The notes under the pieces: generated by a model
The model's input: only the letters and a program-made list of their open reading frames with translations
Database searches by the model: none
What the model was told of the DNA's origin: nothing
NCBI GenBank assembly: GCA_964549935.1
Contig: CAZJVT010000001.1
Span: 155,922 to 219,921 of the forward strand
Source: an uncultured Candidatus Saccharibacteria bacterium
GTDB taxonomy: Bacteria; Patescibacteriota; Minisyncoccia; UBA6257; 1-14-0-10-44-23
DNA: 64,000 nt
Direction of reading: 5' to 3'
Made by a program: the position numbers and the translations under genes
Shown here: one piece after another, positions 22,418 to 60,880 of the stretch
How positions within the stretch are numbered: position 1 is the stretch's first letter
How the letters are laid out: the number at the start of each line of letters is the position of its first letter

Positions 22418-22470
22418 GATTGTACTATTCGCGCGAATGGTACAATCAAGTCTTTTTGGGTTTTTAAATA
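22418..22470 (+). terminator. Rho-independent terminator after the LTD gene.
   Basis: Near-perfect 34-nt palindrome ttgattgtactattcgcgcgaatggtacaatcaa followed by gtctttttgggttttt. Confidence 0.6.
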
Positions 22471-22529
22471 GCGAGCGGGCGGCGCGTGGTGTTCGCGCCG
22501 CCCGTCGAGGCTCTTCCCGAACTCGTTGC

Positions 22530-22802
22530 TCAATGCTGCTTGGAAGCAGCGCATCCGACTCGAGGGCAGAAGGAGACCGTGATGACCTCGATCCCGCCAG
22601 TTCGGGTGTTCTGCCGGAGCGTGAAGCCCATGAACTGGTGATCGTCTTGCCTCACGACTTCGGCGAGACGCATCAGGCTTCTCGCCACCACTGCCCGTTC
22701 TTCGGCCGGGATGCTGCACCGGTGCACAACGGCACCGGCAACGACTTCACGCGACTCTTCGACGACTCGGAAGGTCGCGTTCTTTCCACCGCGAGGACAC
22801 AT
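22530..22802 (-). CDS. Hypothetical small protein (90 aa) encoded in a high-GC island.
   Basis: Perfect AAGGAGG RBS 5 nt upstream of the ATG on the minus strand. GC3-rich codons unlike the neighbours. CPRGG...CPRVGC cysteine pairs. Confidence 0.4.
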   Translation of the reverse strand: MCPRGGKNATFRVVEESREVVAGAVVHRCSIPAEERAVVARSLMRLAEVVRQDDHQFMGFTLRQNTRTGGIEVITVSFCPRVGCAASKQH

Positions 22803-22916
22803 ACACACCTCCTTGTTGCGGGTATTTTTAACTTACTCCATGGCTTGTTTTTAGTCCAATTTTTTGCTATACTTACTCTAATTCCCGTTAGGAACTTTAT
22901 TTATTTTTGACCATTT

Positions 22917-57795: not shown

Positions 57796-60423
57796 ATGGC
57801 CCCTAAAAAATCCAACGAATTCGTCAATAAAATTGTCATCAAGGGCGCGCGCGTTCACAATTTGAAGAACGTCAATTTAGAGTTGCCGAAAAATCAGCTC
57901 ATCGTTTTTTCCGGTCTCTCCGGCAGCGGCAAGTCATCACTCGCGTTTGATACGATTTTTGCCGAAGGGCAGCGCCGTTACGTTGAGTCGCTTTCTCCGT
58001 ACGCCCGTCAATTTTTGGGCCAGATGGAAAAGCCGGACGTCGATGAGATAACCGGACTTTCGCCGGCAATCGCTATCGATCAGAAGGCGCATTCACACAA
58101 CCCGCGTTCGACCGTCGCAACGCTCACGGAAATTTACGACTATATGCGCGTGCTTTTTGCGCGCGCCGGTGTTGCATACTGTCCGACCTGTGGTCGCGCT
58201 ATCCGCAAAATGGCGCCGGAGGAGATTGTTGACACGGTCCGGGATGAGGCGGCCAAGCGCAAAGCGGAGCACGTTGTCGTCATGGCCTCCATTGTTCGTG
58301 GGCGTAAGGGAGAATACTTCCAGCTGCTGCAGGATTTGTATCGCGATGGATTTACGCAGGTCCGCATCGACGGCAAGATGACCTCGCTCAACGAGAAGGT
58401 TGAGCTGAAGCGGTATGGCGCGCATACGATTGATTTGATTGTCGACAAAGTGATGCCGTCTGACAAAACTCGTATGTTTGAAGCAGTTGAAACGGCGCTC
58501 CAAAAAGGCAAGGGTTTAATTTCTGTTTCCTTTGGCGAACCGACAAACGTAAGGGCAAAAGGGAAGCTGGCCGAAGAGGGTACGCCGCAGTGGGAGGCCG
58601 ACCTGGCAGCTTCGAAGGCGCTCGAGGAAAACAAGAACGAGCAGATGTTTTCGGCCCACTGGAGCTGTCCGCACGACGGGTTTTCCTTCCCGGAAATAGA
58701 GCCGCGCCTGTTCTCATTCAACAGTCCATTCGGTGCCTGTGAGGAGTGTCACGGTATTGGGCACGATTTTTTCGACGATACAAAAGTCTGCGTAAAGTGT
58801 AGCGGTGCGCGTCTGCGCCCCGAGGTTTTGGCGATTCGCTTAGGTGGTAAAAATATCGACGAACTTGTTTCGATGACCATTGATGAGTCCTACGAGTTTT
58901 TTGCCGACATTGATAAGCACCTGTCCGCCAGTCAGCGTACGATCGCCAAAAATGCCTTGAAGGAAATCACCGATCGCTTGGAGTTTCTGCTCGAAGTTGG
59001 CTTGGACTATCTGACACTCAAGCGCGAGAGTGGCACGCTTAGTGGCGGCGAGGCGCAGCGTATTCGTTTGGCATCACAGATTGGCTCGAAGCTCTCCGGT
59101 ACGCTCTACGTGCTCGATGAACCGACGATTGGTCTGCATGAGCGCGATAACGAGCGCTTGATTAAGATTATGAAAGAGCTGCGCGACCTCGGTAACAGTT
59201 TGATCGTTGTCGAGCACGACGAGCGCGTTATCCGTGAGGCGGACCACTTCGTCGATATCGGTCCGGGTCCGGGCGTACACGGCGGCACGATTGTGGCCGA
59301 GGGCCCTATGCCGGAGGTGCTCAAGAAGTCGGCTAAGGAGTCGCTGACGGCCCGCTACTTAAACGGTGAGGAGGAGATCGAGATCCCAAAGACGCGCCGC
59401 GACAAGGACAAGGGCTGGCTGAAGATAATCGGCGCGACGGCCAACAACATCAAGAACTTGAATGCTGAGATTCCGCTCGGTCGGCTTGTGTGTATCACGG
59501 GAGTCTCTGGAAGCGGTAAGTCGACGTTGCTTGAAGATGTTTTGTATAAAAACACCCAGAAGATGCTGGGCGGATTCCAAAACTTACATGGTGTTTCAAA
59601 GATCATCGGCACCGAGTATCTGCGTCACGTGATTTCTATTGACCAGTCGCCGATCGGTAAAACACCGCGATCTAACCCGGCTACGTACACGGGTGTCTGG
59701 GGTCCTGTTCGTGACTTATTCTCGATGCTGCCGGAGGCCGTTGAGCGAGCTTATGGTCCTGGAAGGTTCAGTTTTAACGTCCCGGGTGGACGCTGCGAGG
59801 CCTGCGAAGGAGCGGGTGCGAAGGTTATCGAGATGCACTTCTTGCCGGACGTGCTCGTTACTTGCGATGTCTGCCGTGGTAAGCGCTTCAGTGCCGAGAC
59901 ACTCGAGGTAAAGTATAAAGGCAAAAACATTGCCCAGGTACTCGACATGACCGTCGAGGAGGCACTCCTGCACTTTGAAGGTGTGTACACGATTGCCGAC
60001 AAGCTTAAAGTTCTCAACGAGGTCGGGCTGAACTACATCAAGCTCGGCCAGAGTGCGACGACGCTCTCGGGTGGCGAGGCGCAGCGTATCAAGCTTAGTA
60101 AGGAGCTGGCTCGACCGATGGCGCGGAATGATTTGTTTATTTTAGACGAGCCGACGACGGGACTGCACTTCGAAGACGTGAAGATGCTGCTCGCTGTTTT
60201 GCAGCGTATCGTCGAAAAGGGGAACACAGTGATTCTCATCGAGCACAACATGCACGTGATTAAAGTGGCCGACTACCTTATCGACATGGGTCCGGAAGCC
60301 GGTATCCGTGGCGGCAAGATCATTGCCGAAGGCACACCAGAAGAGGTGGCGCACAATACGAAATCGATAACGGGAAAGTACCTGAAACCGTACTTGCGTA
60401 GCTCTAAAAATTCGAATAAGTAG
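57796..60423 (+). CDS. uvrA: Excinuclease ABC subunit A.
   Basis: GLSGSGKSSLAFDTIFAEGQRRYVESLS; two ABC ATPase modules and zinc-finger Cys clusters; 875 aa. Confidence 0.9.
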   Translation: MAPKKSNEFVNKIVIKGARVHNLKNVNLELPKNQLIVFSGLSGSGKSSLAFDTIFAEGQRRYVESLSPYARQFLGQMEKPDVDEITGLSPAIAIDQKAHSHNPRSTVATLTEIYDYMRVLFARAGVAYCPTCGRAIRKMAPEEIVDTVRDEAAKRKAEHVVVMASIVRGRKGEYFQLLQDLYRDGFTQVRIDGKMTSLNEKVELKRYGAHTIDLIVDKVMPSDKTRMFEAVETALQKGKGLISVSFGEPTNVRAKGKLAEEGTPQWEADLAASKALEENKNEQMFSAHWSCPHDGFSFPEIEPRLFSFNSPFGACEECHGIGHDFFDDTKVCVKCSGARLRPEVLAIRLGGKNIDELVSMTIDESYEFFADIDKHLSASQRTIAKNALKEITDRLEFLLEVGLDYLTLKRESGTLSGGEAQRIRLASQIGSKLSGTLYVLDEPTIGLHERDNERLIKIMKELRDLGNSLIVVEHDERVIREADHFVDIGPGPGVHGGTIVAEGPMPEVLKKSAKESLTARYLNGEEEIEIPKTRRDKDKGWLKIIGATANNIKNLNAEIPLGRLVCITGVSGSGKSTLLEDVLYKNTQKMLGGFQNLHGVSKIIGTEYLRHVISIDQSPIGKTPRSNPATYTGVWGPVRDLFSMLPEAVERAYGPGRFSFNVPGGRCEACEGAGAKVIEMHFLPDVLVTCDVCRGKRFSAETLEVKYKGKNIAQVLDMTVEEALLHFEGVYTIADKLKVLNEVGLNYIKLGQSATTLSGGEAQRIKLSKELARPMARNDLFILDEPTTGLHFEDVKMLLAVLQRIVEKGNTVILIEHNMHVIKVADYLIDMGPEAGIRGGKIIAEGTPEEVAHNTKSITGKYLKPYLRSSKNSNK

Positions 60424-60541
60424 TTTTGAAAGCGAAAGCATTTTTATTGACAAAAATATATTTTTGGTTTATTTTGTTTTAACGGCCAAGCGGAGAGCCC
60501 GTTTGTGCTTAGCCGGCTTTGTGCTGGCGGAAGGAGCTATC

Positions 60542-60787
60542 ATGCGAGGTGGACGGAAGGAGCGGCGGGCGCGACGCGCTCGCGCGAAGGGGATGGGGAA
60601 GACCTGGGTGGGCGATCCGGCGAGGGTCACGAAGAAGAATGGGTCGGCGATGCTCAAGGCCAACCCGAACTCGACGCGGACGGCGATCAAGCGGGTGCGA
60701 GCTGACGCGGCACAGGCCGCTCGTGCTTACGCGGACCGCAAGAGTGGGTACGGCGAACCCGACGTGCACCAGCGCCGCGGTTGGTAG
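60542..60787 (+). CDS. Small, strongly basic hypothetical protein (82 aa) in a high-GC island between uvrA and uvrC.
   Basis: TTGACA promoter-like box at 60457. AGGAG RBS 6 nt upstream. MRGGRKERRARRARAKG.. Two hairpins (a second with T-run) follow. Confidence 0.4.
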   Translation: MRGGRKERRARRARAKGMGKTWVGDPARVTKKNGSAMLKANPNSTRTAIKRVRADAAQAARAYADRKSGYGEPDVHQRRGW

Positions 60788-60880
60788 CGTCTCAGTACGG
60801 GGGCGCGTTCGGTTCGACCGGACGCGCCCCGCTGTTCATTAATTTGGCCTTATGGCCTTTTTTGTTTATACTGACCGCGC

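Follow-up and report, generated by a model that had tools for sequence, protein, structure and literature searches.

Does the presence of several short GC-rich stretches between the housekeeping genes of a bacterial chromosome of about 50% GC record the acquisition of foreign genes and, if so, from where were they acquired? The DNA in question (the window) is a stretch of 64,000 nucleotides of contig CAZJVT010000001.1, in which a first-pass annotation made from the letters alone had marked five GC-rich islands, numbered here 1 to 5 from left to right, and had proposed that they were single-gene cassettes taken from a high-GC host such as an actinobacterium or, alternatively, that they shared a common mobilisation mechanism. 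The explanation that we favour, as probable though well short of assured, is that the islands are moron-like foreign cassettes from one compositionally uniform accessory pool of ~63-66% GC that also feeds related genomes. Each cassette would consist of a sigma-70-type promoter, a strong Shine-Dalgarno (SD) sequence, a small GC-rich open reading frame (ORF) and a GC-only stem-loop, and would sit in a neutral terminator-to-promoter spacer between co-directional native genes of a Harrisonbacteria-like chromosome of ~50% GC, these spacers acting as hot spots.

The GC content of the window is 0.49 and heterogeneous, while that of the five islands is 0.59-0.64. The five places held up, but they contain six small genes of 60-297 aa, two of them on the minus strand and two of them together in island 2. 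These genes were identified by six-frame inspection, frame periodicity, the context of SD and ATG, and public gene calls:

22530-22802, minus strand: the isl1 gene, 90 aa, an ORFan recognised by frame periodicity and translation (GC 0.62; GC content of third codon positions, or GC3, 0.69)
25337-26230, plus strand: the isl2a gene, 297 aa (GC 0.66, GC3 0.85)
26447-26629, plus strand: the isl2b gene, 60 aa, with a Cys-rich N-terminus and a Lys/Glu/Pro-rich tail (GC 0.61, GC3 0.77)
35283-35813, minus strand: the isl3 gene, 176 aa, with hydrophobic N-terminal segments and a soluble C-terminal part (GC 0.57, GC3 0.71)
45105-45497, plus strand: the isl4 gene, 130 aa, all-helical (GC 0.63, GC3 0.80)
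60542-60787, plus strand: the isl5 gene, 81 aa, very basic, between uvrA and uvrC (GC 0.69, GC3 0.80)

The longest ORFs in four of the islands, which are Arg/Gly-rich, were rejected as wrong-frame or wrong-strand artefacts. The isl1 gene is called as a gene in both NCBI and Logan and is a singleton at 90% identity. The isl2a protein is composed of a small N-terminal alpha/beta domain followed by a long C-terminal coiled coil; in its AlphaFold2 model residues 1-116 have a pLDDT of ~80-87 and residues 167-290 form a helix, and the model yielded no significant fold match in the PDB.

Since the genome is metagenome-derived, the islands could in principle be assembly or binning chimeras, and since GC-rich RNA genes are generally known to cause GC spikes in AT-richer genomes, they could also be structured RNA genes instead of protein genes. 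Both possibilities are already effectively refuted, and we give them virtually no credence. Independent Logan assemblies of two sequencing runs, SRR14271336 and SRR14271332, contain the same junctions: their contigs cover isl1-gyrB-isl2a, isl2b-secE-nusG and the isl4 neighbourhood with identical sequence, the isl4 context is identical in the two runs, and two of the contigs end at copies of a 44-nt repeat that is described below. The chimeric assembly against which the first-pass annotation had cautioned is thereby excluded. Moreover, the insertion points lie exactly between conserved terminators and promoters, and no island contains a tRNA, tmRNA or Rfam match in searches with ARAGORN and with Rfam at gathering thresholds and at E ≤0.1. 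A periodicity of GC3 > GC1 > GC2 across the three codon positions, together with the SD and ATG and a protein domain conserved within the isl2a family, indicates that the islands are coding.

Comparison with a native set, defined as the 60 ORFs of at least 100 aa within the window, revealed a composition and codon usage in the islands that are foreign to the genome. All six island genes exceed the native maxima in GC (0.57-0.69 vs a maximum of 0.56) and in GC3 (0.69-0.85 vs a maximum of 0.68), with z = 1.9-4.7. All six island genes have an SD; a core of at least 6 nt precedes five of them vs three of the 60 native genes, for which any start in the first 60 codons was allowed, and 37 of the 60 natives have no SD core. 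Both the strong SDs, G/C-ending codons and GC hairpins first described for the islands and the weak ribosome-binding sites described for the genes around them were thus borne out. The codon pattern is distinct even from that of high-GC3 natives: relative to these, the islands use CGG for Arg at 0.30 vs 0.09, ATC for Ile at 0.90 vs 0.46, TTC for Phe at 0.96 vs 0.40, AAG for Lys at 0.98 vs 0.68 and GTC for Val at 0.51 vs 0.28; they favour CGG over CGC/CGT, and CCC/CCT are increased at the expense of CCG. A leave-one-out codon log-likelihood ratio, which provides the separation of ORFs by codon usage that had been put forward as a check, is positive for 6/6 island genes and negative for 60/60 natives, and the separation persists when the native model is limited to high-GC3 genes. 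The six genes thus have one compositional source or process in common. The window is otherwise a compositional mosaic, with two low-GC tracts (11.2-21.4 kb, GC 0.41; 31.5-41.5 kb, GC 0.44) and further stretches of 200-500 nt with a GC content of at least 0.6 (e.g. 42901-43400 and 46681-47130) that lie inside native genes whose gene-level GC is not outlying.

The same data bear on the notion that the island genes are native to the lineage and that their high GC is maintained locally, either because small genes with very high expression are selected for G/C-ending codons or through GC-biased gene conversion at recombination hot spots. The highly expressed native genes nusG, L11 and gyrB already have the top native GC3 (0.64-0.68), and two observations in other genomes, discussed below, point in the same direction, namely an isl2a homolog that is GC-rich in the same slot of two genomes with 59-70% identical flanks and a GC-rich gene beside a host-like reverse transcriptase. 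However, the island codon pattern differs from that of the high-GC3 natives in kind, as seen for the Arg and Pro codons; GC1, GC2 and the non-coding hairpins are elevated too, not GC3 alone; the genes are strain-specific and non-homologous between close relatives; and a shift in GC3 from 0.55 to 0.85 is, as far as we know, far beyond the reported effects of GC-biased gene conversion in bacteria. Native maintenance is therefore, in our estimation, very unlikely.

Each foreign gene is accompanied by signals of its own:

22807-22814, minus strand: SD of isl1, AAGGAGGT, 4 nt ahead of the ATG, from sequence reading and an SD scan
22477-22503, minus strand: GC-only stem-loop of isl1, GGGCGGCGCG/CGCGCCGCCC, past the stop codon and without a U tract (RNA fold z -3.45)
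25233-25260, plus strand: predicted promoter of isl2a, TTGACT-16-TATTAT with a TG extension, from a promoter scan
25324-25334, plus strand: SD of isl2a, GGAAGGAGAGG
26291-26325, plus strand: isl2a's own terminator hairpin, CAGCCGCCU...AGGCGGCUG with a U run, from a terminator scan and folding
26433-26439, plus strand: SD of isl2b, AAGGAGA
26648-26688, plus strand: GC hairpin of isl2b, from folding
35814-35823, minus strand: SD of isl3, GGAAAGGAAG
35232-35260, minus strand: GC stem-loop of isl3, CCCGCCGCG/CGCGGCGGG (fold z -3.95), just beyond the stop codon (35224) of a convergent extracytoplasmic function (ECF) sigma-factor gene
45523-45550, plus strand: GC stem-loop of isl4, CGGCCGGUUCCC/GGGGACCGGCCG (fold z -4.16)
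60447-60475, plus strand: promoter-like site of isl5, TTGACA-17-TATTTT, read by eye from the sequence
60530-60536, plus strand: SD of isl5, GAAGGAG
60799-60830, plus strand: GC stem-loop of isl5, with a 14-bp perfect stem (fold -39.9 kcal/mol, z -5.5)

GC stem-loops are present behind all six genes, with perfect stems of 9-14 bp and folding z of -2.3 to -7.8, and several have no U tract. As judged by consensus matches and folding, the islands would have the bracketing typical of a moron, that is, a single ORF with its own promoter and a factor-independent terminator. The surroundings of isl3 offer an additional observation: isl3 lies beside an ECF sigma gene at 34580, and beside the paralogous sigma gene at 45810 lies a 45-aa membrane mini-ORF (45566-45703, minus strand) that shows a short transmembrane motif in common with isl3 (L-I/G-L/A-VWG-T/S) and matches it over 46 nt of DNA at 72%. 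This likeness may be due to chance or may be the remnant of a common origin.

Each island occupies the spacer from the 3' end of one plus-strand native gene to the promoter of the next; the occupied slots are LTD|gyrB, gyrB|secE, sigma|PAS kinase, EamA|sigma and uvrA|uvrC. To judge from its nearest public genomes, which are metagenome-assembled genomes (MAGs) titled Candidatus Harrisonbacteria or 'uncultured Candidatus Saccharibacteria', the organism is a bacterium of the Candidate Phyla Radiation (CPR), as the first-pass annotation had guessed, and its GyrB is 97% identical to that of CAZXKC010000001.1. The comparison of slots between relatives covers isl1, isl2a and isl2b, through loci around gyrB in L004 and L006-L009. 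The closest of these, L004 (GyrB 97% identical), keeps the order L9 ... L27, RNase H, LTD, gyrB, secE, nusG, L11, tmk, gatB and differs there solely in cassette content: isl1, isl2a and isl2b are missing from the syntenic slots, and the LTD|gyrB and gyrB|secE slots hold other GC-rich minus-strand mini-genes, each with a GGAGG SD and a GC hairpin. This absence of islands 1 and 2 from so similar a genome, together with the atypical codon usage, upholds the proposal of foreign acquisition. Yet other GC-rich genes are present in the L9|L27, LTD|gyrB and gyrB|secE slots of L007, L008 and L009. The LTD|gyrB slot, for example, is empty (68-77 nt) in L006 and L009 and filled with other GC-rich genes in L004, L007 and L008, and those read in L004 and L008 have GGAGG SDs. 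None of the relatives' slot genes is homologous to an island protein of the window. When scored with the island codon model derived from the window, most of these inserts are positive, the exceptions being two L004 mini-genes and one insert in L009, and all of their native neighbours are negative. Some inserts encode recognisable domains (TPM, in a lipoprotein; an AIRS-related protein plus an ABC exporter) and others are small ORFans with GGAGG SDs, and some of the relatives' cassette genes have matches in PHROG, among them one to a family of the 'moron' category (phrog_944, 2.6e-11; phrog_7314, 2.5e-6). The L9|L27, LTD|gyrB and gyrB|secE slots look like integration hot spots.

In L004 the L9|L27 slot (791-3656) contains a diversity-generating retroelement (DGR). 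Its target gene (914-1648; GC 0.64, GC3 0.87) is the sole GC-rich gene of the element and includes the variable repeat (VR, 1511-1646), whose mismatches to the template repeat (TR, 2087-2222) fall at TR adenines; the element also comprises an Avd-like four-helix gene (2231-2500, minus strand) and a reverse transcriptase (2634-3656). Adenine depletion of the DGR type was rejected as the source of high GC in the window because AT skew is normal; no VR/TR repeat pair, reverse transcriptase or A-specific depletion was found there.

Homologs of the islands were sought in large protein databases with isl2a, isl3 and isl4, rather than isl1, isl2b and isl5, as queries. A word-index search of 5.8 billion proteins returned only the three queries themselves, by which measure they are ORFans. 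A full HMMER search of 1.84 billion representatives found four relatives of isl2a only (E 1e-24 to 6e-5). The contigs on which these relatives lie look streamlined, with split transketolase, PfkB, FtsZ/FtsA, YbeY and HisRS, a gene content that suggests CPR genomes. Homologs in close relatives of the same composition had been named in advance as the finding that would speak against a foreign origin; homologs in streamlined, CPR-like genomes do exist, but in three of the four the gene is a GC-rich island there too (GC 0.63-0.64; GC3 0.71-0.84 vs 0.42-0.62 for neighbours). Likewise, the codon model is positive for three of the four homologs, the exception being that of L017, and negative for all native neighbours. 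An N-terminal alpha/beta domain is conserved in the isl2a family, which also has a coiled coil, and alignment of five upstream regions uncovered a common promoter, TTGACTTTT-N-TATAAT (pattern in L014, L015 and L016), which is not a general motif of the window. The family is absent from IMG/VR, and scans of viral and metagenome collections were empty. In L015 and L016 the homologs, 39% identical to one another, occupy the same TktC|PfkB slot between flanking proteins that are 59-70% identical. Adjoining the L016 homolog is a second GC-rich ORFan (2055-3326, 423 aa, GC 0.62), the C-terminal motif of which (NPVVKLMRETWEKA) looks similar by eye to the C-terminal ends of P0014 and P0015, which suggests that the cassette family includes modular paralogs in tandem.

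Searches for known families gave little: NCBIfam and PDB sequence searches with the island proteins found nothing significant, and PADLOC found no defence genes in the islands. Individually, isl1 has no Pfam, PHROG, PADLOC or NCBIfam match and no tblastn match in phages, isl3 has no family, phage or PDB match, and isl5 has no phage or family match. The one exception to the lack of island homologs in the high-GC bacteria, plasmid and viral contigs searched is isl4, which in residues 21-90 shows weak similarity to the C-terminal portion of actinophage head-tail adaptors. With tblastn, 26 records were matched, all of them actinophages (Mycobacterium, Gordonia, Rhodococcus and Nocardia phages; best E 5e-3); pairwise comparison with a head-tail adaptor gave 32% identity over 75 columns; and PHROG 783 was matched in the same region at E 0.13. 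Since the other five island proteins, GC-rich queries as well, have no phage match at E ≤1, the isl4 match is not simply an artefact of composition. This weak similarity is the only actinobacterial link of the islands.

CPR bacteria are generally regarded as dependent on other cells, although partners are known for only a minority of lineages, and we know of no established host for this CPR class. Direct capture of chromosomal genes from a high-GC host, e.g. an actinobacterium, through uptake by the epibiont and fixation of single genes, would agree with the recipient being a CPR bacterium, with the isl4 similarity to proteins of actinophages, and with codon usage, strong SDs and U-tract-poor GC hairpins that would resemble those of high-GC Gram-positive genes. 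However, although Actinobacteria are densely sampled, isl2a, isl3 and isl4 have no homolog in a non-CPR-like context in either of the two large protein sets, so that the best matches in high-GC taxa expected by the first-pass annotation did not materialise; no plasmid matched; and the isl2a family promoter is conserved across several streamlined, CPR-like genomes. We consider direct host capture unlikely.

A viral rather than cellular pool, with the islands being morons or fragments that come from, or are exchanged with, GC-rich phages or other mobile elements, stands a minor but real chance of being correct. A promoter-ORF-terminator unit whose GC is unlike that of its flanks corresponds to the classical definition of a moron, ORFans are typically common among phage genes, isl4 is weakly similar to a head-tail adaptor, and the PHROG matches of the relatives' cassette genes include the moron category. 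Set against this, no phage structural, integrase or terminase genes adjoin any island, five of the six proteins have no phage match even at a permissive threshold, the isl2a family is missing from the viral collection IMG/VR, and mobile elements are, to our knowledge, usually AT-richer than their hosts, not GC-richer.

Possible traces of how the cassettes moved are confined to island 2, where isl2a is bracketed by a repeat:

25170-25213, plus strand: left copy of the 44-nt direct repeat, downstream of gyrB, folding into a perfect terminator hairpin of 15-16 bp that has a T run (-28.8 kcal/mol, z -7.8; scored terminator-like)
26330-26373, plus strand: right copy of the 44-nt direct repeat and terminator hairpin

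The two copies are identical at 41 of 44 nt (93%) and represent two matches where 0.00 were expected; they fit integration or duplication at the gyrB terminator. The repeat was not accepted as an attC site, its palindrome being perfect and its arms separated by no more than 6-8 nt. At the boundaries of isl1 and isl5, T-rich sequence similar to the promoter regions of gyrB and uvrC was too low in complexity to be taken for target-site duplications, and no flanking repeats were found at islands other than isl2a. Right behind gyrB lies an extended, near-perfectly paired hairpin of 139 nt (24972-25110; -72.8 kcal/mol, z -7.4), and L004 has the same long-hairpin architecture in the same place (9265-9395) with a different sequence.

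The data presented above have led us to propose a model in which foreign cassettes would enter by DNA uptake and recombination at intergenic spacers, as strain-specific additions, with different cassettes filling the same slots in related genomes. In the case of isl2a, integration or duplication at the gyrB terminator would have left the 44-nt direct repeats behind. The ultimate source may be an unsampled GC-rich organism, its mobile elements or its phages, and the encoded proteins (membrane, basic, Cys-rich and coiled-coil) may serve accessory or conflict roles.

Several points weigh against this model. (i) Across all searches, which for the large protein databases means isl2a, isl3 and isl4, no homolog was found in any genome in which the gene is compositionally native. 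(ii) Absence from relatives is established for isl1, isl2a and isl2b, not for isl3, isl4 and isl5; clusters of flanking proteins at 90% identity provided no relatives giving synteny for these three, and a metagenome scan with UvrA provided distant relatives only (≤60% identity), which are uninformative for the uvrA|uvrC slot. (iii) The islands have no shared end motif and no k-mer of at least 11 nt common to three of them, and among the window genes scanned no recombinase adjoins any GC island, the only recombinases being two serine recombinases of a separate low-GC element; no tyrosine recombinase was found among these genes. With repeats at isl2a alone, the common mobilisation mechanism envisaged by the first-pass annotation is therefore not demonstrated. 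(iv) The GC-rich DGR target of L004 lies beside a reverse transcriptase and an Avd-like gene of host-like GC, hence high GC is not simply the mark of a co-transferred block. (v) The isl2a homolog is still GC-rich in the TktC|PfkB slot shared by the diverged L015 and L016; under vertical inheritance a decay of its GC3 would be expected, and its persistence would then argue for maintained high GC rather than recent import. A repeatedly refilled slot and long-term maintenance of high GC both fit this last observation.

These points leave an outside chance for a broader proposal, namely that self-contained cassettes, GC-rich and SD-led, form a clade-wide pool that circulates among CPR genomes of ~50% GC and that its foreign composition is kept long-term, either by continual re-import from a GC-rich partner or the partner's phages or by tuning for expression in the partner. 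The isl2a family, with GC3 of 0.71-0.78 in the same slot of L015 and L016, would be an example of such persistence. Speculatively, the cassettes could be tuned to the codon usage, SD and U-less terminators of the partner, in analogy to T-DNA genes, which carry the expression signals of the recipient.

The window is chromosomal. It contains pilin-like genes, SOD, fmt, def, L9, L27, gyrB, secE, nusG, L11, tmk and gatB along with two ECF sigma factors, a PAS histidine kinase, uvrB, uvrA and uvrC. Apart from the GC-rich islands, an integrative element of low GC (0.41) and ~10 kb (11150-21385) interrupts the LTD-domain gene, the N-terminal (10706-11185) and C-terminal (21339-22409) parts of which are contiguous in L004. 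Its cargo comprises a type III restriction-modification pair (Mod, 11257-13254; Res, 13247-15775), a LOOT RNA (15849-15972, 81 bits), a helix-turn-helix protein and, at the right end of the element, the two serine recombinases (18922-19704 and 19679-21385). Within 32612-32895, a tRNA-Asn(GTT) gene is split within the anticodon by an insert of ~208 nt (~32647-32854); the halves match the contiguous tRNA of L004 (14800-14875) at 98-100%, the split gene is not called by ARAGORN, and the insert is not recognised as a group I intron by Rfam. The insert could represent a small tRNA intron of a type not yet described, or else a degenerate insertion. Finally, upstream of uvrB, two small tandem ORFs carry a 63-nt segment in two copies (54861-54923 and 55121-55183, 75% identical) that encodes a C-x-C-G-S-G-K-P (SEC-C-like) motif.

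If the islands are foreign cassettes, the donor, be it a partner or a phage associated with the partner, should in principle be recognisable by their single, unameliorated codon signature, with which the same metagenomes could be searched for it. That the same slots are filled with different GC-rich cassettes from one relative to the next points to integration hot spots in streamlined genomes, and the small ORFan proteins may mediate symbiont-host or phage conflicts. If, on the other hand, the high GC is maintained and not merely recent, the islands would represent an unusual bacterial case of gene-specific composition.

Among known systems, phage morons provide the closest comparison in layout. 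Morons are independent promoter-ORF-terminator units between genes of lambdoid and other phages. Like them, the cassettes each have one small ORF accompanied by a predicted sigma-70-type promoter and a stem-loop terminator, a composition sharply unlike that of the flanks, an intergenic position that leaves the neighbours undisrupted, a distribution that varies between close relatives, and mostly unknown function. Unlike them, the islands are chromosomal, lie between housekeeping genes and are GC-richer than the host, and the isl2a family recurs in several streamlined, CPR-like genomes; a prophage location is not indicated, as the flanks are gyrB, secE-nusG, uvrA-uvrC, sigma factors, a PAS kinase and EamA, with no phage genes nearby. 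Integron cassettes and clusters of attC sites lacking integron-integrases (CALIN) are also built of single-ORF units, and isl2a lies between two copies of a hairpin-forming repeat; however, this repeat is a 36-nt perfect terminator palindrome that lacks the R''-L''/L'-R' boxes and extrahelical bases of an attC site, and there are just two copies of it. The islands have predicted promoters of their own and lie dispersed over 38 kb instead of forming an array, and the window genes scanned include no integron integrase. Transfer from an actinomycetotal host to an epibiotic saccharibacterium resembles the present case in its CPR recipient and in the idea of a high-GC partner as the source, but no actinobacterial homolog was found and the organism belongs to a Parcubacteria-type lineage. 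Our literature search found general work on horizontal gene transfer in Patescibacteria but no account of GC-rich SD-led cassettes. In Patescibacteria, genomic islands and transfers of single genes, mostly from one member of this group to another, have been identified by sequence similarity between donor and recipient (PMC12455944). The islands differ from these islets in that they are ORFans without an identifiable donor and share high GC and leading SDs, a signature foreign to almost all genomes in which it was seen, and they resemble them in being strain-specific accessory genes whose only homologs lie in other streamlined, CPR-like genomes. In sum, the islands belong, as a variant, with the horizontal-transfer islets or morons already known and do not amount to a novel type of system.

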